From NCBI RefSeq assembly GCF_004010195.1, contig NC_057754.1, positions 12,183,356-12,247,355 on the forward strand: a DNA stretch of 64,000 nt. Direction: 5' to 3'. The stretch comes from Chiloscyllium plagiosum. Lineage: Eukaryota. The notes beneath the pieces were generated by a model. It had not been told where the DNA came from and made no database searches. It saw nothing but the letters and a program-made list of their open reading frames with translations. The translations under genes were made by a program, and so were the position numbers. Shown here piece after piece: positions 1 to 59,557 of this stretch (positions within the stretch are counted from its first letter, which is position 1; each line of letters opens with the position of its first letter).

Positions 1-355
1 TTTCTCCAGTTTCCTCATTCCCCCTCCCCCCACCTTGTCTCAGTCCCAACCCTCGAACTCAGCACCACCTTCCTAACCTGCAATCTTCTTCCTGACCTCT
101 CCGCCCCCACCCCACTCCGGCCTATCACCCTCACCTTGACCTCCTTCCACCTATCGCATTTCCAACGCCCCTCCCCCAAGTCCCTCCTCCCTACCTTTTA
201 TCTTAGCCTGCTGGACACACTTTCCTCATCCCTGAAGAAGGGCTTATGCCCGAAATGTCAATTCTCCTTTTCCTTGGATGCTGCCTGACCTGCTGCGCTT
301 TTCCAGCAACACATTTTCAGCTCTGATCTCCAGCATCTGCAGTCCTCACTTTCTT
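1..355 (+). mobile_element. Penelope-like element 3' end/pLTR remnant
   Basis: C-rich 3' region followed by a hammerhead-like core and the GATGCTGCCTGACCTGCTGCGCTTTTCCAGCA tail. The tail recurs degenerate at about 14530 (-), 21050, 39890, 42965 and 59735. Confidence 0.7.
226..263 (+). ncRNA. Minimal type I hammerhead ribozyme motif (PLE-associated)
   Basis: CTGAAGA(232-238)-A-GGGC-TTAT-GCCC-GAAA(252-255)-TGTC: CUGANGA core, perfect 4-bp stem II, GAAA and a GUC triplet. Stem I/III show probable CpG decay. Confidence 0.65.
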
Positions 356-857: not shown

Positions 858-1430
858 AGCCCCGCCTCTCCCGTCAGTCCAGGACAATGTTCTGGCTCCA
901 GGCCCGCCTCCTCATTCACGATTTGCAGATGCCGGTGTTGGACTGGGGTATACTAAGTTAAAAATCACACACCACCAGGTTATAGTCCAACAGGTTTACT
1001 TGGAAGCACTAGCATTCTGAGCCCCGCTCGTTCATCAGGATACTCCACAACTACCTGATAAAGGAGCAGCGCTGTCAAAGCTAGTGCTTCCAAGTTAACC
1101 GGTTGGACTCTCGCCTTGGTTGTGTGATGTTTAACTCCTCATTCACGGATTGGTTGGAGAACTAATCCCGCCCCTCACACCCTTCGATAGGTTAAGACTG
1201 CAGCCCGCCCACTATCTCTGATTGGGCAAGTGTCACCTGATGTTTACTCTGATTGGATGGCTGGCAGCTACTATCACGCCTTCTGCTTCCTATTTGCCCT
1301 GAGGCGTTGTCAATCATGCGGGAGGAAGAGCGACGCATGCGCACAGTTGGTTGGGATATTGAATATGCGTGTGCCGGGAGTGACGGTTGGAAGTGAATGT
1401 TTGTTTATCACATCCACGGGCGGTAAGTAA
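858..1430 (+). promoter_or_regulatory. CpG-rich promoter and non-coding first exon (probably of the ZNF gene)
   Basis: Several GC boxes (CCCGCC), inverted CCAAT boxes (GATTGG at about 1148, 1220, 1251), NRF1-like GCATGCGCA (1335-1343), and splice donor CG|GTAAGT at 1423. CpGs are retained to about 1760. Confidence 0.7.
921..1134. mobile_element. Palindromic Penelope-derived non-autonomous insert with two inverted degenerate hammerhead motifs and a 13-bp TSD
   Basis: Arms of about 83 bp (956-1039 and 1054-1136) are imperfect reverse complements. CTCCTCATTCACG is present at both 908-920 and 1135-1147. Confidence 0.8.
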
Positions 1431-14521: not shown

Positions 14522-14682
14522 TACACAAAAACAGAAATTGCTGGAAAAGCACAGCAAGTCTGGCAGCATTTGTGGAGAGAAATCGGAGTTAATGTTTCAG
14601 GTCGAGTGACCCTTCCTCTGAACTCAGCAGATACTTCTATTTTTGTCTCTGATTTACAGCATCCACAGTTCTTAGTTTTTAT
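14522..14682 (-). mobile_element. Penelope-derived repeat with degenerate hammerhead motif
   Basis: Minus strand 14620-14588 reads CAGAGGA-AGGGTC-ACTC-GACCT-GAAAC-ATTA, followed by the ATGCTGCCAGACTTGCTG...TTTTCCAGCAA tail. Confidence 0.65.
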
Positions 14683-14954
14683 TCCCCTTTCCAAATAGCC
14701 TTTCTCACTCACCCCACTTACATCACTCCAGGCTTTGAGCTGCCTACAATACAAGTTCCAGAATTTCCTCCTTAGACATCTCTCTCATTCAAGATAGTGT
14801 GTCATTAAAATCGATATCTTTAATCAGCATGTTCATCACCTGTGAGGAATCTTAGGAGAGTGACAATGTGACAGGTTCCATAAACTGTACGTTGTTGTTG
14901 TAATAGCCTTACATTGGGAGAATCAGGAATGACATACTGCTTCCCCATCTCACA

Positions 14955-20465: not shown

Positions 20466-21533
20466 AAGTGTAGGCTTGGACTTATCAGACTCTGATCAGG
20501 AATTTGGAAGTAGAATATTAGTTGGTGATGCAGTCAGTGGCTCAGAAAGACAAAAGAAAGGAAGATTTAATAAGGATAGAGTCTCTCTTCATACATCAGT
20601 CCTGACATCCCAGAAATCAGTCTGGTGATCCTTTATTATTCTGTCTCAGTAGCCAGGGCATCCTTCCTTGGGAAGGAATAACAAAGGTGTCCACAAGATT
20701 CCAGGTGTGGTCTCACCAAAGCCCTTCCAGAAAGATATCCCTGCTTCTGTACTCGAATACTCAAACTATGAAGGCCAACGTATCATTTGCATTCTTCACT
20801 GCTTGCTGCTCCTGCCTGCTTCCTAAAAGAGAGAGTCACAGAGAAACATGAGACTAAATGTGGTCAGAGTCTCTGATATAATACTGTTGAACTCAATGTT
20901 CTTATCTTGTCCATGTTGGTCATCAAGCACCTATTTACACTAATCCCATTTTCCAGCAGTGAGCGTGCAACCTATATTGCAGTGCAATGGGTGACCATTT
21001 AAACATTTTGTAAAGATAACAATAGTTCCTGAATTCGTCACCCTTTTGGATGCTTCAAGACCTGCTGTGTATCTCCATCTTTTTCTGCTTTTATTTCAGG
21101 TATTTTGTTTCTTATTCTTAGTCCTTCAAATGGATCAAAAGGTATGGAGAGAAATAGGAATTGGTTTGAGCTGCAGATGTATAAAACGTCTCTGCTCCGT
21201 ACCTGTCTTTTCCACCTCTCTCTATTTCAGTAGTTTTGTGCAGACACTAACTTGTTCCCTTCCCTGAAGGATATTTATGAACCAGTTCAGTTTTATCTCT
21301 CTCTCTCTGTCTTTTTTTCCTCTTTCTTTCTGTCTCTCTAACTTTTTTTTCTGTTTGAAATTTTGATTGCAGTTAGAGAAATCGACCAAAACAATATCCG
21401 GATCTGACAGTCACTCTGTTTGCAATGACCTCAGTATCTCAGGATTTTGAACATTGAAGGAAAAAACCCTGTTCGCACCAGGGAGAAACACGTACTGTTT
21501 GTGTGTGAAAGGGTCTGTGGCGATTCATCTGAA

Positions 21534-22577
21534 ATGTCCAAACGCCACCGCAGTCACACTGGGGAGAGACAGTGGAAATGTGGGGATTGTGGGAAGGGAT
21601 TTCTTTACCCGTCCCAGCTGGAAATGCACCAGCGAGTTCACACTGGGGAGAAGCCATTCACCTGCTCTGTGTGTGGGAAAGGGTTCACTCAGTCATCCAA
21701 CCTGCAGATACACCAGCGAGTTCACACTGGGGAGAAGCCATTCACCTGCTCTGTGTGTGGGAAAGGATTTATGTTGACTTCTCACCTGCTTAAACATCAG
21801 CGAGTTCACACTGCGGAGAAGCCATTCACCTGCTCTGTGTGTGGGAAAGGATTTATGCTGACTTCTTACCTGCTCAAACATCAGCGAGTTCACACTGGGG
21901 AGAAGCCATTCACCTGCTCTGTGTGTGGGAAAAGATTCAGTCAGTCATCAAACCTGCAGGTACACCAACGACTTCACACTGCAGAGAGACCTTTCACCTG
22001 CTCTGTGTGTGGGAAAGGATTCATGCTGACTTCTTACCTGTTCAAACATCAGCGAGTTCATACTGCAGAGAGACTGTTCACCTGCTCTGTGTGTGGGAAA
22101 GGATTCAGTCAGTCGTCCTACCTGCTAAAACATCAACGAGTTCACACTGGGGAGAGACCGTTCACCTGTTCTGTTTGTGGGAAAGGATTCGGTCAATCAT
22201 TCTACCTACTAGAACACCAGCAAGTTCACACTGGGAAGAGAACATTCTACTGTTCTGTGTGTGGGAAAGGATTCACTCGCTCATCTAAACTATTGGTACA
22301 CCAACGAGTTCACACTGGGGAAAAGCCATTCACCTGTTCCGAGTGTGGGAAGGGATTTACTGAATCATCTAACCTGCTGAGGCACCAGCGAGTTCACAGT
22401 GGGGAGAAGCCATTCACCTGTTCCGAGTGTGGGAAAGCATTCACTCAGAGAATGCAGCTGCTGATACACCAGCGAGTTCACACTGGGGAGAGACCATTCA
22501 CTTGCTCTGTGTGTGGGAAGGGATTCACTCAGTCATGCAACCTGCTGAGACACCAGCAGGTTCACCAAAAACCATAA
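21534..22577 (+). CDS. C2H2 (Kruppel-type) zinc-finger protein, 12 tandem fingers, no effector domain visible
   Basis: Open frame 21447-22577 with 12 intact CxxC-x12-HxxxH fingers, most joined by TGEKPF-type linkers. First in-frame ATG at 21534. Splice acceptor at 21372 after a long CT tract; in-frame TGA at 21426. Confidence 0.9.
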   Translation: MSKRHRSHTGERQWKCGDCGKGFLYPSQLEMHQRVHTGEKPFTCSVCGKGFTQSSNLQIHQRVHTGEKPFTCSVCGKGFMLTSHLLKHQRVHTAEKPFTCSVCGKGFMLTSYLLKHQRVHTGEKPFTCSVCGKRFSQSSNLQVHQRLHTAERPFTCSVCGKGFMLTSYLFKHQRVHTAERLFTCSVCGKGFSQSSYLLKHQRVHTGERPFTCSVCGKGFGQSFYLLEHQQVHTGKRTFYCSVCGKGFTRSSKLLVHQRVHTGEKPFTCSECGKGFTESSNLLRHQRVHSGEKPFTCSECGKAFTQRMQLLIHQRVHTGERPFTCSVCGKGFTQSCNLLRHQQVHQKP

Positions 22578-24401: not shown

Positions 24402-24767
24402 ACAAAGTTTAATTAAGATAAATGTGAGGTGCTGCATTTTGGAAAGACCAATCAGAGCAGGACTTCTACACTTAATGGTAGGCTCCTGCAGAGTGTTGCT
24501 GAATAAAGAGACTATGGGGAACTCATAATTCTTCCAAGGTGGAGTCGCAGAGGTCTATGGAATGAACTGCCAGAGGAAGTGGTGGAGGCTGGTACAATTA
24601 CAACATTTTAAAAGGCATCTGAGTGGGTATATGAATAAGAAGGGTTTAGAGGGATATGGGCCAAGTGCTGTCAAATGGGATTCTATTGATTTAGGACATC
24701 TGGTCAGTATGGACTAGTTTGACAGAAGGGTCTGTTTCCGTGCTGTATGTCTCTGAGAGTATTATAG

Positions 24768-27500
24768 ATAACATAGAGTCATAGAAATGTACAGCACAGA
24801 AACAGACCCTTCAGTCCAACTTGACCATGCTAACCAGATATCCGAGATAAATCCAGTCCCATTTGCCAGCTGTACACATACAACTCTCTGTGTGAAAAAG
24901 GTGCCCCTTAGGTTCCTTTTAAATCTTTCCTCTTTCACTTTAAACCTGTGCTCTATACCTTTTGGATTTTCCCACCCAAGGGAAAAGACCTTGTCTATTC
25001 ACCCTCTCCATGTCCCTTATGATTTTATAAACCTCTATACAGTCACCCCTCACCCTCTGATGCTCCAGGGCAAACAGCCCCAGCCTATCCAGCTCCTCCT
25101 ATAGCTCAAATCTTCCAACCCTGGCAACACACTTGTAAAACTTTTCTGAACCCTTTCAAATTTCACAACATCCTTCCTATACGAGGGAGACCAGAATTGC
25201 GCACAATATTCCAAAAGTGGCCTAACCAAAGTCCTGTACAGCCGCAACATGACCCGCCAACTCCTATAATAACACAGTAACCAATAAAGGCAAGCATACC
25301 AAACAGCTTCACTATCCTCCTTACCTTCCACTTTCAAGGAACTTTGAATCTGCACTCAAAGGTCTCTTTGTTCAGCAACACTCCCCATGACCTTACTGTT
25401 AAGTGTGTAAGCCCTGATTTGTCTTTCCAAAATGCAATATCTAAATCAAACTCCATCTGCCACCCATTGGCCCATCTGATCAAGATCCCATTGTACTCTA
25501 AAGTAATCATTTTCACTGTCCACTTTAGCTCCAATTTTGGTGTCATCTGTAACTTACTAACCATAACTCCGGTGTTCACATCCAAGTATATAAAATAATG
25601 AAAACCAGTGGACCCAGCACCGATCCTTGTGGCACTTCACTGGTCACAGGCCTCTAGCCTGAAAAGCAGCCCTCCACCACCACCCTCTGCTTTCTACCTT
25701 TGAACCAGTTCTGTATCCAAATGGCTAGTTCTCCCTGTATTCCATGTAACCTTGCTAACCAGCCTCCCATGAGGAACCTTGACGAATGCCTTACTGCAGT
25801 CCTTTTGAGATGATGTTTACTGCTCTGCCTGCATCAATCCTCTGCGTTACGTTTTGAGAAAAAAAATTAATCAAGTTAGTGAGACATGATTTGCAACGTG
25901 CAAAGCCATGTTGACTGATCCTAATCAGTCTTGCCTTTCCAAATACATGTAAATCCTGTCCCATAGGTTTTCCTCCAACAACTTGCCCACCACCAATGTC
26001 AGGCTCACCAGTCCATAGTTCCCTGGCTTTTCCTTAAATAGTGGCACCATGTTAGCTAACCTTAAGTCTTTTGGCACCTCATCTGGGACTATCAATGATA
26101 CAAATATCTCAGCAAGGGGTCCTCCAATCAGTTCCCTAACCTCTCATAGTTCTAGGGTACACCTGGGAATTTATCCACCTTTATGCATTGTAAGACGTCC
26201 AGCACCATCACCTCAGTAATTCCGATGTTTTTCCGTATTTTGCTATTTCTTTACTTTTTTTTATCTTCCATGTTCTTCTCCCCAGTAAGCACTGATGTTT
26301 AGTATCTCCCCCATCTCCTGTGATTCCACACATAGGCAGCCTTACTGATCTTTGAGGGGTCCTATTCTCTTCCTAGTTCCCCTTTTGTCTTTAATGTCTT
26401 TATAAAATCCAGTTGGATTCTCTTTAATCCTATTTACAAAAATTATCTCTTGTCCCAATTTTGCACTTGTGATTTCCCTTTTAAGTATACTCCCACAGCC
26501 TTTATACTCTTCTAAAATTCACTGGATCCCTGTTGTATATACCTGACATATGCTTCCTTCATTATAGAGTCATAGAGATGTACAGCATAGAAACAGACCC
26601 TTCGGTCCAACCAAACCGCGATTTCGTTAGTCCCAGCATTCCCTGCACCTACCAACCTTGCCTTTCACCCTAAGAGGAACACATTGTCTTTGGACTCTCA
26701 TTATTCACATTTTCCAGCCATCACTTTACCAGCAAATATCCACATCTAACCAATTTTTGGAAATTCTTGCCTAGTACCATCAAAATAGGCCTTCCTCCAA
26801 TTTTGAATTTTAACCTTTAGATCTGGTATATCCTTCTCCATCACTATTTTAAAACTAATAGAATTGTGGGCACCTTACCAAAGTGCCCCCCCACTGACAC
26901 CTCAGTCACCTGCCCTGCCTTAGTTCCCACAAGTAGGTCAAGTTTTGCACCTTCTTTCGTTGGTACATCCATATATTGAATCAGAAAATTTTCTTGTACA
27001 CTTAACAAATTCCTCCCCATCTCAACCTTAACACAATGGCAGACCCAGTCTGCGTTTGGAAAGTTAAAATCCCCTACCATAACCACCCTATCGTCCTTAC
27101 AGATAATGGCGATCTCCTTTACAAATTTGTTTCTCAATTTTCCGTTGACTATTATATGGTGTTTAGCACAATCCTAATAAAGTGATCATCCATTTCTTAT
27201 TTCTTGGTTTCACCCAGTTTTTATGAATATCACTCTGAAGTCCAGCCGTAATGTTAACAGTAATCAAAATGTTACTCCCCCTCCTCTTTTCTCCCCCCCC
27301 CCCCCCCCTCACCCTTTTATCCTTCCTATAGCATCTATAATCTGGAACATTAAGCTGTCAGCCCTGTCTCTGAGCAACATCTCTGTCATTTCTGTGATAT
27401 CCCAGTCCCATGTTCCCAACCATGTCCGGAGTTCATCTGCCTTACTTGTTGAGCTCTTGCATTGAAATAAATGCAGTTTAATTGGTCAGTCCTACCTCGT
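24768..27500 (-). mobile_element. CR1 ORF2 (EN-RT) with internal deletions
   Basis: VMVGDFNFPNADW and LYRTLVRPLLEYCAQFWSP; tail at 24773; a second short tail at about 26565. Confidence 0.85.
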
Positions 27501-39746: not shown

Positions 39747-39771
39747 CCCTGACCAACACTGAGTCATATCC

Positions 39772-39942
39772 AATAAAACCTGAAAGAATTTCAGGTGCTG
39801 GAAATCAGAAACAAAAGCAGAAATTGCCGGAAAAACTTCCTCAGAGGAAGGCTAATTGCATCTAAAACATTAACTCTCATTTCTCTTCAATGCTGCCAGA
39901 CCTGCTGAGCTTTTCCAGCAATTTCCATTTTTGTTTCTGAGG
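39772..39942. mobile_element. Penelope-derived inverted-arm repeat
   Basis: TCAGAAACAAAAGCAGAAATTGCCGGAAAA and TTTTCCAGCAATTTCCATTTTTGTTTCTGA are inverted arms around a decayed hammerhead-like core. Confidence 0.55.
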
Positions 39943-40274
39943 CATATCTGTTGCCAATACTTGGTGTTGCCTGTGTATGACTCCAGACCCACACCAATGT
40001 GATTGAATCTTAACTGACCTCTCTGAGAACTTCTCAACATACCTGAAGCATAGGGCCAAAACATGGAGGTTGCATTCTACAGAGATTTCACTGAAACGTC
40101 AGGGAGATTCATGCCACCTATTTCAGAACCATGGTTAGATGTCAATTGAGTTCACTGCTGTCCTTTGTTGTTTGATTGGGCAGGTAACGATCCAGGTTTA
40201 ATGTGACTGGATATTGAGGTTTCTCAGAAAAAGAGCTCTCTCATTAACCTGTTGTTCATGGATAAGGAGAGTTA

Positions 40275-43283: not shown

Positions 43284-43459
43284 ATCACGTGACCTCGCTG
43301 GTGTCGCAGACGTATGGAAGAAACATTGAATCCCTTACCCACACACAGAGCATGTGAATAGACTCTCCCGAGAATGAGTTTGCTGGTGTTTCATCAAATC
43401 ATTGCTGCTTCTAAAGTTCTTCTCACATTCACAACACTTAAATGCTCTGTCATCGGTGT
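43284..43459 (-). pseudogene. C2H2 ZNF 3' end, frameshifted, truncated by N gap
   Basis: TDDRAFKCCECEKNFRSSNDLMKHQQTHSRESLFTCSVCG*. Removing one base restores KGFNVSSIRLRHQRGH. Confidence 0.75.
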
Positions 43460-43959
43460 NNNNNNNNNNNNNNNNNNNNNNNNNNNNNNNNNNNNNNNNN
43501 NNNNNNNNNNNNNNNNNNNNNNNNNNNNNNNNNNNNNNNNNNNNNNNNNNNNNNNNNNNNNNNNNNNNNNNNNNNNNNNNNNNNNNNNNNNNNNNNNNNN
43601 NNNNNNNNNNNNNNNNNNNNNNNNNNNNNNNNNNNNNNNNNNNNNNNNNNNNNNNNNNNNNNNNNNNNNNNNNNNNNNNNNNNNNNNNNNNNNNNNNNNN
43701 NNNNNNNNNNNNNNNNNNNNNNNNNNNNNNNNNNNNNNNNNNNNNNNNNNNNNNNNNNNNNNNNNNNNNNNNNNNNNNNNNNNNNNNNNNNNNNNNNNNN
43801 NNNNNNNNNNNNNNNNNNNNNNNNNNNNNNNNNNNNNNNNNNNNNNNNNNNNNNNNNNNNNNNNNNNNNNNNNNNNNNNNNNNNNNNNNNNNNNNNNNNN
43901 NNNNNNNNNNNNNNNNNNNNNNNNNNNNNNNNNNNNNNNNNNNNNNNNNNNNNNNNNNN

Positions 43960-45880
43960 AATGAAAGCTGCAGACGGCATGATGTCAATCGACTACATAA
44001 AAGGGAAGAAACTTGGCTAATGGAATTCATTCTGGAGATAAGGAATCTGGGACGAGAGCGGCTAACAGGGAAAGGAAATGTACAATAAATAGTAGGAAAC
44101 TATGAAGTTTAGAGGAAGTGCCAGCACTCCGAATGATGTCCACACATCCCCAAAAGGAGGTCAGTGAGGGGTTTGGTTGACCCTGGAACATAAAAGCATG
44201 GAGATTATGCTAGAGAATTAGAAAACATGAGTTAGAACGCAGCTGGAGTACAGAGGGCAGTTCTGTTCATCACATTAATGAACTACAAAGTGAGACTGGA
44301 TTAATTATAATAAAACTCAAGTTATTTTGATACTTCATTAAAATCAGTGTTCAATTCATCAAATGTCTCTAAAAACGATCAAGCTAATTGACAAAATAAT
44401 TATAACAGTGAAGACATCTGATTTGGCAGAAACTGAAATTCTGTAGTGTTTCAATAATAATAAAGAAAAAATATTTTGATTAACTTACTATAAAAAGGTG
44501 ACTTCTGTATAATGGAAGAAGTTGATTAGTGAGTAGCTAACGAATTGATCTTTATTTTAATCTGAAGGTTGGTTTGGCTTAGTTAATAAATAAACACAAG
44601 GTAGACCCATGGACTGCACATTGAGTTCCATGTGAGAAAACCAAGATAATTACAGTCACAGAGTCATGCAGCACTGAAAAAGGCCCTTCAGCCCAACTCA
44701 ATCATATCGACCAGATCGATTAAACTGAGCTAGTCAAATTTGCCTGCGTTTGGCTTATATTGCTATAAACCATTCCTAACATTAAACCTCTCCAAATGTC
44801 TTTTCAATGTTGTAATTGTTTCTGCCTTTATCACTTCCTCTGTCAGCTCATTTCATATGTGCACCACTCTCTGTGTGAAATCGTTGCTCCTGAAGACCCT
44901 ATTAAAGCTTTCCCCTCTTACCTCAAACCTGTATCCTCTAATTCTGGACTCCTCTACACTGGGAAACAGTAGCTTGGCTATTCATCTTATCTGTGCCCTT
45001 CATAATTTTAAAGACTTCTGTAATGTCACCCCTCAGCTTCCTATACTCCAGGGGAAAGAAAAGTCCCAGCCTCTGCAGTCTCTCGTTATAACACAAACCT
45101 TCCAGTCTTCGTCACATCCTTTTTGCACCCTTTCTAGTTTAATAACATCCTCCCTATACATGGGTGACCAGAACTGTACAAGATGCTCCAAATGTGGCCT
45201 CACCAATGTCTTGTTCGGCTTTAACATGACATCCCAACTCCTGCACTCAGTGCGTGCCAGATACCTCTCCATCAGCCTGTCTGCCAGGGGTACAACTCCT
45301 GTGATTGATGAGAACACCTATTTGACCACAGCTAAAATATGATACTCAGTTCTGACCCTACATTCCAGGATAGATGTGGTCACACTAGAGATGGTGCAGT
45401 GGAAATTGATGGGAATGTTTCCAGAATTGGAGAATTAAAGCTCTCAGGATTGGATAGGTTGGATATAGATTGGATAGGTTGAGATGGTTTTCTGTGGAAG
45501 AGAAGCAGACCAACGTGAGATTTTATTGAATTGGTAAGATAATGAGGAGTACAGATAGAGTGGATTTGATTGAGCTATTCATGAACAGAGAGGTCGATAA
45601 CTGGAGGTTTTAGAAAAAAAAAAAAAATTCACGGAAAGAAGGGGAAGGGAGAAATCATTTCTCCCAGACATGGTGGGGATGTGGAACGCTCTGTCTGATA
45701 GAGGCAGTAATCCTCATTGCATTAAAATAAAAGGACATGAATACACTTGAAATATAGAATGTACAGGTCTATTTACTAAGATCAATAAAATGAGATCGGC
45801 CTGGATAGTTCTATTTCATCCACACAATCACAATGGACCAAGTGGTCTCCATCTGTGCTGTGAGTTTCAGATGACTTTAT
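43960..45880. mobile_element. Three CR1 fragments (43960-44280 +, 44655-45250 -, 45330-45880 +)
   Basis: RT C-terminal motifs such as KTLVRPHLEHLVQFWSP, and tails. Confidence 0.7.
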
Positions 45881-49487: not shown

Positions 49488-49823
49488 AGAACCAAAATTT
49501 CACCATTACTGTATTGTCTGAGCTGAGATGTCACGTTTTTTACAAAGCCTTAAGTTATCTCGGGAATGTGACTTGAAAAAGGTTGTGGGAATACATATTA
49601 ATGAATCAAAACATGCTAGTCATTCTAAAAGATGAAGGACTTAACAACAATCCAGGTTTGTTCAAAATATCACATCAGTGTATGACACCATGATCTTATA
49701 CGATAAGTTGTGTGCCCTATGATCCTACTCCACAGCTATCTGGCGAAGGAGCAGCGCTCCAAAAGCTAGTACTTCCAAATAAACCTGTTGAATTATAATC
49801 TGGTGTCGTGTGATTTTTGAGTT
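49488..49823 (+). mobile_element. Penelope-like 3' end, same family as the promoter insert
   Basis: 49726-49823 aligns with 1041-1136, including CTGGCGA-AGGAGCAGCGCTCC-AAAAGCTA. Confidence 0.7.
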
Positions 49824-50050
49824 CTCACTCGTATGAATAATCTGAGGCCCCTTGTACACTGCCAAACAAATTTTAAAAATCCTATCCTTGTTTTGAAATT
49901 CCTCCATGATCTTCCCTCTCTATTTCCACATGCTCCATATCTTTCCCCACAGAGAGAGCAGAGAAACTTGAAACTGACAAAACAGTCAAACGCTGGTCAT
50001 ATTCACCTTCTGATTCTTCAATTGTGACAGGACAGAGGGGAGAGGGGCAG

Positions 50051-58654: not shown

Positions 58655-59557
58655 TTACTTGCATCGTCGAATGAAATCCAGAAGTGTCGAAAATGGATAC
58701 ATAAGCATATTCTTCAAATGTCCTCTGAATTGTGGTTGGATGACAGTATAAACACAAGCGTTTGTGCAGCAGGCCGATATTTGTAGAATGAAGCCTGCTT
58801 CAAGTACAACGAAAGGTATATTTATCATGTTGCTATTCAACTTGTATATTCGTTTCCACAAACAGAACAGCGTTGTCAAAGCACTGAGCAGAACGAAAGT
58901 TCCTGAGATAACAAATAGGAAAATAATATCTTTCCTTCGACTTTTCCCCTCTGAATCTCCATAAGCCTCCAAAATTCTATGAGCCTGCAGCCTTTTGCGG
59001 TTTTGTCTGCTCATTAAAACCTGTCTGATAGTGAAAACGTAGAGCAGTGCAATAAGCACGAATGGAACTACCAGTGATAGAACGTGATGCAAGAACTCTA
59101 TTGCTGCCCAAACGAAAGAGAATTGGACTTCCTTTTTCATGACACAAAACAACGGTGTATTCCACGTTTTGTAGGAACCCGTTAGCATGAAATATCAGCT
59201 GACGTTTTTTAAACAGCATAGTACTCCAAGTGTTCCAAGAACGATATCTGCCGTCTTTATGGTGCAATATTTACTTCTCCACTTCCTGGAAGAGATGGTA
59301 ACAAATCGATCGAAAGTAAAAGCAACAGTAAACCAGACAGATGCATCTGTGGCCGTATTTATCAATGTAGCATGTATATTACACATGGGGATGTTCCGTA
59401 GGAAAAGGAAATGTTCAATATAGACAAGTACAATATGTCTTAATATCAAGTCCAAGATAATAATAAGTAGGTCCGCCGCTGCCATAGCCACGATATATGG
59501 TACATTTGGAGAGACCACATTTTCGCCGACTCAGTATCACAACTGTTAGTATATTAA
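58655..59557 (-). pseudogene. Class A GPCR, GPR139/GPR142-like, terminal coding exon (disabled)
   Basis: Acceptor CCCCTAACAG| then VNILTVVILSRRKCGLSKC..YIVAMAAADLL...SVWFTVAFTFDRFVTI...SACCTNACVY. Net 5-bp deletion at about 59495 relative to the duplicate copy; in-frame TGA at 59195-59197. Exon 1 was not found in the window. Confidence 0.85.

Follow-up and report, generated by a model that had tools for sequence, protein, structure and literature searches.

The feature analysed here is a 214-bp insert near the start of a 64,000-nucleotide stretch of DNA (the window), enclosed by two plus-strand copies of a 13-bp direct repeat at 908-920 and 1135-1147. The copies are identical at 13 of 13 positions, and the identity extends in neither direction. 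The 13-mer occurs only these two times within the 64-kb window, has a chance probability of about 2e-6 over 121 registers, and gives a repeat score of 13, compared with at most 8 among 145 random position pairs. The repeat is most likely a target-site duplication (TSD). The initial annotation had described a retro-insertion of 214 bp between perfect direct repeats, and both the repeat and the head-to-head, 5′-truncated ends within it bear this out. At the left copy, the last one to five bases also match the continuation of the element beyond its tail, with the majority base of the family found at 919 and the family ending at 920, and at the right copy the first two bases also fit the element's own continuation or end, leaving the junctions ambiguous by one to five and by two bases, respectively.

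Within the TSD lie two 5′-truncated copies of one element end, arranged head to head. The left arm (921-1039, minus strand) is an element 3′ end truncated one base before its hammerhead core, and the right arm (1040-1136, plus strand) is a 3′ end truncated about 14 bases before its core. The inverted segments 956-1039 and 1054-1136 are identical at 67 of 84 positions, and the predicted RNA fold of 908-1147 has an energy of -103.8 kcal/mol (z -8.9), with 0 of 200 shuffled sequences equally stable. The insert had been called palindromic, which holds for these arms but not for the whole, as 921-955 is unpaired and has no counterpart in the right arm. This 35-bp segment (minus strand), present in the left arm only and bounded by loose ends at 920 and 955-958, is the "tail", or 3′ extension, of a Penelope-like element (PLE). 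The 14 nucleotides at the centre (1040-1053), which appear as the loop of the hairpin, are additional 5′ sequence of the right arm and also occur in a third family copy at 49.7 kb. The AATAAA poly(A) signal position of the family (995-1000, minus strand) has one base changed in the left arm, and the hexamer is intact in the 49.7-kb copy.

The insert sits at the upstream edge of what looks like a promoter. The promoter-like region to its right (1149-1424, plus strand), which is outside the element and orthologous in two other organisms (B and C), is CpG-rich (observed/expected up to 0.92) and contains CCAAT boxes at 1149, 1221 and 1252, GC boxes at 1168 and 1205, and a GT splice donor at 1423. 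Bin depths in the public run X5 appear to imply one contig at about 1341-1423 that ends at the donor, as spliced RNA would. The insert had been thought to separate a GC box from a CCAAT box. A CCAAT box does adjoin it on the right, but the left box is a CCCGCC variant, with the strict GC boxes and all three CCAAT boxes lying to the right. Elsewhere in the window are a C2H2 zinc-finger exon or array at 21429-22577 (plus strand; 12 fingers by Pfam), a second such array at about 43300-44100 (minus strand) broken by an assembly gap, reverse transcriptase (RT) remnants of CR1/L2 type, and two open frames at 58655-59530 (minus strand) that by eye resemble parts of a gene for a seven-transmembrane receptor. 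The zinc-finger gene at 21429-22577 may be the one served by the promoter at 1150-1700.

Each arm carries a minimal hammerhead core. The left core (1010-1038, minus strand), of type I, is changed at A15.1, 10.1 and 11.1, losing A15.1 and the base of helix II; the 5′ strand of helix I is truncated, so that most of this helix is missing, and the core differs from the family majority at 1014 and 1030. The right core (1055-1083, plus strand) is changed at G8 and G12, with the base of helix II broken, and the core of the third copy (49740-49768, plus strand) is changed at A6 and G12. An invariant base is broken in all three window cores, and both arm cores are probably dead, in agreement with the original description of two outward-pointing, mutated and probably inactive cores, each of which reads as first stated. 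Neither arm core matches a strict or one-mismatch minimal-hammerhead descriptor. Rfam gives 0 matches in 600-1500 up to an E value of 10, and over the whole window it gives two sub-threshold, unrelated matches and no hammerhead for any natural copy. Read ends do not pile up at the cleavage site in a poly(A) single-cell run, a library uninformative for cleavage.

The initial annotation had also held that a minimal-hammerhead consensus could be reconstructed with the copy at 49740, and consensus rows of loose ends in public data support this. With the exception of G12, retained in one window copy, every core base survives in two or more of the three; among the best 24 of 822 loose-end rows, G12 appears in one consensus row (X10, at 998) and A in three rows at 1013, as CpG decay predicts. 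The family consensus has the core CUGANGA / GAAA / UH, a bulge between 9 and 10.1 and a palindromic 15.2-16.2. Judged by its sequence, the family majority fits the minimal hammerheads portrayed in excerpts of PMC4209133, with which it has in common the core, the type I order, the extra base between 9 and 10.1 before helix II, G10.1-C11.1, a palindromic 15.1-16.1 (AGCU), the absence of loop 3 and a short helix I. Helix II has 5 bp here versus 7-8 bp in the schistosome families of the same excerpts, and helix I has 3 bp before a mismatch. Pairing in helices I and II reaches 83% of 24 cells, compared with 25-54% when the strands are slid, with 0 two-sided changes in three sequences and with 160 of 500 shuffles as high.

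Because it lacks loop 3, the family hammerhead would need a same-sense dimer; dimer cleavage is credited to Lunse et al. in a passage of the review PMC6765202. A transcript of the insert would contain one core and its antisense, so no dimer could form in cis and the term "double hammerhead" is functionally meaningless in cis. In addition, the whole core is contained in the arms, and the 5′ ends of the arms are therefore not hammerhead cleavage sites. The sole exact match to the minimal-hammerhead descriptor in the window lies elsewhere, at 232-259 (plus strand) in a repeat spanning about 1-355, with one match observed against a mean of 0.1 over 100 shuffles, of which 8 gave a match. This core belongs to a PLE-like family other than that of the insert, in the end that bears the tail, and its position 16.2 breaks the palindrome.

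The third family copy (49726-49818, plus strand), recognized by similarity to the arms, is single and tail-less and probably extends further 5′. The search for an inverted partner or TSD found nothing better than distant 8-mers, and a profile built from the three copies recovers only those three across the window. The sequence upstream, at 49540-49725 (plus strand), may belong to the element as well. It includes a 38-aa frame (49577-49690) with a GLN motif of the kind found in PLE endonuclease ends; the frame has 0 Pfam families and 0 matches in 1.84 billion proteins, and was rejected as evidence of such an end for want of a database match. The 3′ flank of the third copy (49821-49833) matches 1135-1147 at 7 of 13 positions in one of seven registers, which we treat as chance, a weak target preference being the alternative.

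Two further fold-backs in the window belong to another family. The first, at 39771-39940, is a head-to-head structure with a short tail-bearing arm (minus strand) and a long tail-less arm (plus strand) that starts at a decayed hammerhead; an 11/12 direct repeat lies at 39759-39770 and 39937-39948, its first four bases also fitting the element end. The other, at 14525-14683, has the opposite orientation and aligns with the first (74.6% over 169 columns), the gaps falling at the centre or junction; its best TSD candidate matches at 7 of 8 positions, no better than background, since 7 of 145 random pairs equal it. In all three window fold-backs, the insert at 908-1147 included, the arm with the tail is the more truncated of the two, an outcome expected by chance once in four. 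The inverted 88-bp arms (80%) at 24553-24870 are at the end of a LINE-like copy and probably reflect an inversion at insertion.

Public sequence data place the insert within a large dispersed family. Four of 24 listed public runs were aligned to 701-1600 at 80% likeness, namely X5 (organism A, of unrecorded library type), X10 (organism B), X17 (organism C) and X21 (organism A, poly(A) single-cell RNA, about 2% of the run read); no RNA run was listed as containing the stretch itself. The aligned contigs number 23,447 in X5, 40,083 in X10 and 32,631 in X17, and summed depth reaches millions on 911-1030 versus tens on the flanks. Among the best 24 of 822 rows, outer loose ends fall at 920 (603 contigs in X10, 519 in X17 and 191 RNA reads) and others at 956-958 (228, 210 and 173 in X5; 571 and 500 in X10; 437 and 375 in X17). 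Flanks at both places are AT-rich and unrelated, with an agreement of 0.35-0.38, and the rows at 955 partly resemble the tail and include alignment breaks rather than true ends. The two 3′ ends are 35-38 bp apart, which identifies the interval as a PLE tail. At our locus, one arm ends at the family's outer 3′ end, with the tail, and the other stops 35 bp short of it, at the inner 3′ end. Outer ends shared family-wide are what the two PLE priming sites would give.

The RNA reads come largely from these other copies. Of the 2,253 aligned RNA reads, 480 have a poly(T) loose end at 980 and 287 have one at 983; nearly all of these derive from other copies, the two positions lie 11-15 nt past the AATAAA position, and family copies elsewhere act as poly(A) sites for many transcripts (767 of 2,253 aligned RNA reads). 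Only 3 of the 2,253 X21 reads have at least 99% likeness and 0 lie on the flanks, a sample uninformative on expression of the 5′ region. Exact-pattern scans of bacterial, viral and metagenome collections gave 0 matches each, as expected of an animal repeat. The site is filled in organisms A, B and C, indicating that the insertion predates these species, and an empty site was seen neither in the three species nor as a paralogous site within the window. In organism B, one match covers the flank and left arm at 727-984 (13 differences) and another the right end and flank at 1120-1597 (19 differences), and in organism C a single contig carries both 988-1100, which spans the junction, and 1144-1597.

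Taken together, we consider it very probable that 908-1147 arose in one insertion event, now old and fixed, of a highly abundant Penelope-like family and retains only two 3′ ends. The Penelope-like origin proposed at the outset is well founded, as the tail, the two preferred 3′ ends, the inverted 5′-truncated copy, the TSD and the terminal hammerhead are all present. For the mechanism, we propose a form of twin priming, to which we assign roughly even chances. The PLE endonuclease would nick both target strands, 13 nt apart, and each 3′-OH would prime reverse transcription at one of the two internal start sites that bound the tail, the top strand at the outer site to give the tail arm and the bottom strand at the inner site to give the tail-less arm. 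Both cDNAs would stop early near the hammerhead and be joined end to end, and gap filling would create the TSD. The mirror half would thus be made during insertion, not inherited. If both primings occurred on one RNA, the outer primer would trail, and the more truncated arm would be expected to carry the tail. The hammerhead would be the element's ordinary dimer-type motif, passively carried, and in any transcript of the insert it would be hidden by pairing between the two arms. In L1 twin-priming inversions, two cDNAs primed from both target strands end up head to head in one TSD, each copied from its own stretch of the RNA. The pieces here instead overlap, producing a hairpin.

Several published observations accord with parts of this scheme. 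In vitro, as described in part of PMC11167929, a PLE protein predicted to be dimeric cuts and extends both strands and prefers AT-rich sites, and the tail is the interval between two internal RT start sites. The target at our locus is not AT-rich, unlike the family-level flanks. Sections of PMC8557442 give a 30-40 bp tail at one end with an inverted 5′-truncated copy as typical of PLEs, and the same architecture is drawn as typical in a portion of PMC8969392. Two-ended PLE priming in vivo was not found in the portions of the literature examined, and a search of titles and abstract starts, with repeat databases outside its scope, returned no description of the hammerhead-stub family at 908-1147 or of twin priming in PLEs.

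The mirror arm may alternatively have been made by snap-back, that is, by self-priming on one strand followed by an off-centre cut that leaves the tail. This would replace one step of the mechanism and keep the PLE origin, and we regard it as possible though doubtful. Snap-back is proposed for rotifer Penelope in a section of PMC3846280 on the basis of palindromes at inverted junctions, and a section of PMC8557442 ascribes the tail to endonuclease resolution, but there is no palindrome or microhomology at 1039/1040, and the loop is oriented with the tail-less arm, such that an extra trimming step would be needed to template the tail. One non-majority base is common to both arms (999/1094), as copying would give, yet we estimate that one shared change in 84 sites is expected by chance about a third of the time. 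It is highly unlikely that the arms record two separate events, with a later copy inserting into or at a stub already present and only one of the two accounting for the 13-bp repeat. PLEs are reported in part of PMC6765202 to insert into or beside existing copies, but here one TSD encloses both arms with no second duplication at the centre, the left and right arms are about equally distant from the 49.7-kb copy (67/84 and 73/97), and the same build recurs in the two other window fold-backs.

The original proposal was a retrozyme-like family that moves as a fold-back unit. Put in PLE terms, the insert would be a non-autonomous fold-back mini-element, transcribed and re-inserted whole by PLE proteins, with clades sharing the inner junction as in a MITE-like subset. 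The outer ends (920; 955-958) are indeed common family-wide, short fold-backs recur (three in the window), long arms tend to begin at the hammerhead 5′ edge, and the inserts at 14.5 kb and 39.8 kb align over their whole length, though gaps at the junction set these two apart. Moreover, pLTRs alone can mobilise sequence in trans according to part of PMC3846280, and a contig that is not orthologous (X10 record 7, 980-1100, 8 gap letters) reads through a comparable junction elsewhere. The inner junctions, in contrast, are heterogeneous, and the expectation of many copies sharing both ends stands only for the outer ones. Among the best 15 of 93 joint rows, the left arms of other fold-backs end at 949, 967, 978, 990, 996, 998, 1003, 1004, 1005, 1010 and 1012, each junction with at most two contigs per run. 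Centre-bin depth is about 200-fold below the arm peak, 113 contigs in X5 and 353 reads in X21 continue past 1039 into further element sequence instead of the mirror arm, the longest non-orthologous pieces, of about 120 letters, cover one arm only (best 24 of 97,339 pieces), and the 49.7-kb copy is single. Detection of fold-backs is limited by contigs that break in repeats, by the diverged right arm of the window and by the 80% cut-off; right-arm starts can be detected only within 1041-1136, and alignment of one arm to the other may have produced some of the joints artificially. With junctions this varied and copies running past 1039, movement as a fold-back unit is very unlikely. There is even less reason to believe that the insert is retained as a promoter element of the downstream gene, whether as a cruciform, a hairpin or a spacer. 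Its position beside a CCAAT box, in promoter-like sequence rich in CpG, and its occurrence in three species speak for such a role, but in organism C it is no better conserved than its flank (8 differences in 113 positions inside versus 26 in 454 outside), and a 43-bp deletion there has removed the right end of the insert together with most of the right TSD. In organism B, the two GC-like boxes upstream both carry mutations (864, 865, 903 and 904), one organism A contig has a 19-bp deletion at 885, and no differences fall in the right-hand boxes among the best 40 of 125 difference rows. Cruciform extrusion is unlikely for arms only about 80% alike with a 14-nt spacer, and neither the suggested cruciform nor the suggested promoter effect found support.

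We thus retain a single PLE insertion reduced to two 3′ ends, whose features can be set beside those of known systems insofar as the consulted parts of the sources describe them. With the inverted-pLTR insertions of endonuclease-positive PLEs (Arkhipova et al. 2013, PMC3846280; Craig et al. 2021, PMC8557442; Frangieh et al. 2024, PMC11167929), it has in common head-to-head 5′-truncated ends, a one-sided tail of 30-40 bp, a short TSD, two preferred 3′ ends and family-level AT-rich flanks. It differs in having no ORF between its ends, and no RT or GIY-YIG ORF was tied to the family, which we assign from these ends; its TSD is 13 bp compared with the 8-10 bp TSDs around inverted pLTRs in rotifers (PMC3846280). 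Opposite-strand minimal-hammerhead pairs in Schistosoma are 100-700 bp apart (PMC4209133), whereas only 16 bases separate the starts of the two cores here. Metazoan non-LTR retrozymes (Cervera and de la Pena 2020, PMC7229834; Li et al. bioRxiv 10.64898/2026.07.22.740005) are likewise small, non-coding and PLE-related, with a type I hammerhead and a TSD of more than 4 bp, but these sources present them as same-sense tandem repeats with at least two complete hammerheads. The window holds one inverted pair with broken minimal cores and one solo copy, and we rejected retrozyme identity because no same-sense tandem repeat with two complete hammerheads is present. Families of one cartilaginous fish are contained in the supplements of Li et al. 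and, from what the preprint says of them, may bear on the family at 908-1147.

The insert at 908-1147 is real and ordinary for its class, with an architecture already published for PLEs, and as a dead stub of a known class it matters little by itself. The family population could matter, as the formation of PLE inverted ends and tails is still called undefined in sections of PMC8557442 and PMC11167929. Its tens of thousands of short, TSD-bounded copies would provide a natural read-out of PLE insertion, in which three properties may be counted genome-wide: the position of the tail on the more truncated arm, as in three of three fold-backs here; the overlap of 2-4 bases between the TSD and the tail-less end (2 at the insert and 4 at 39937); and 5′ truncation near the 5′ edge of the hammerhead rather than at its cleavage site.
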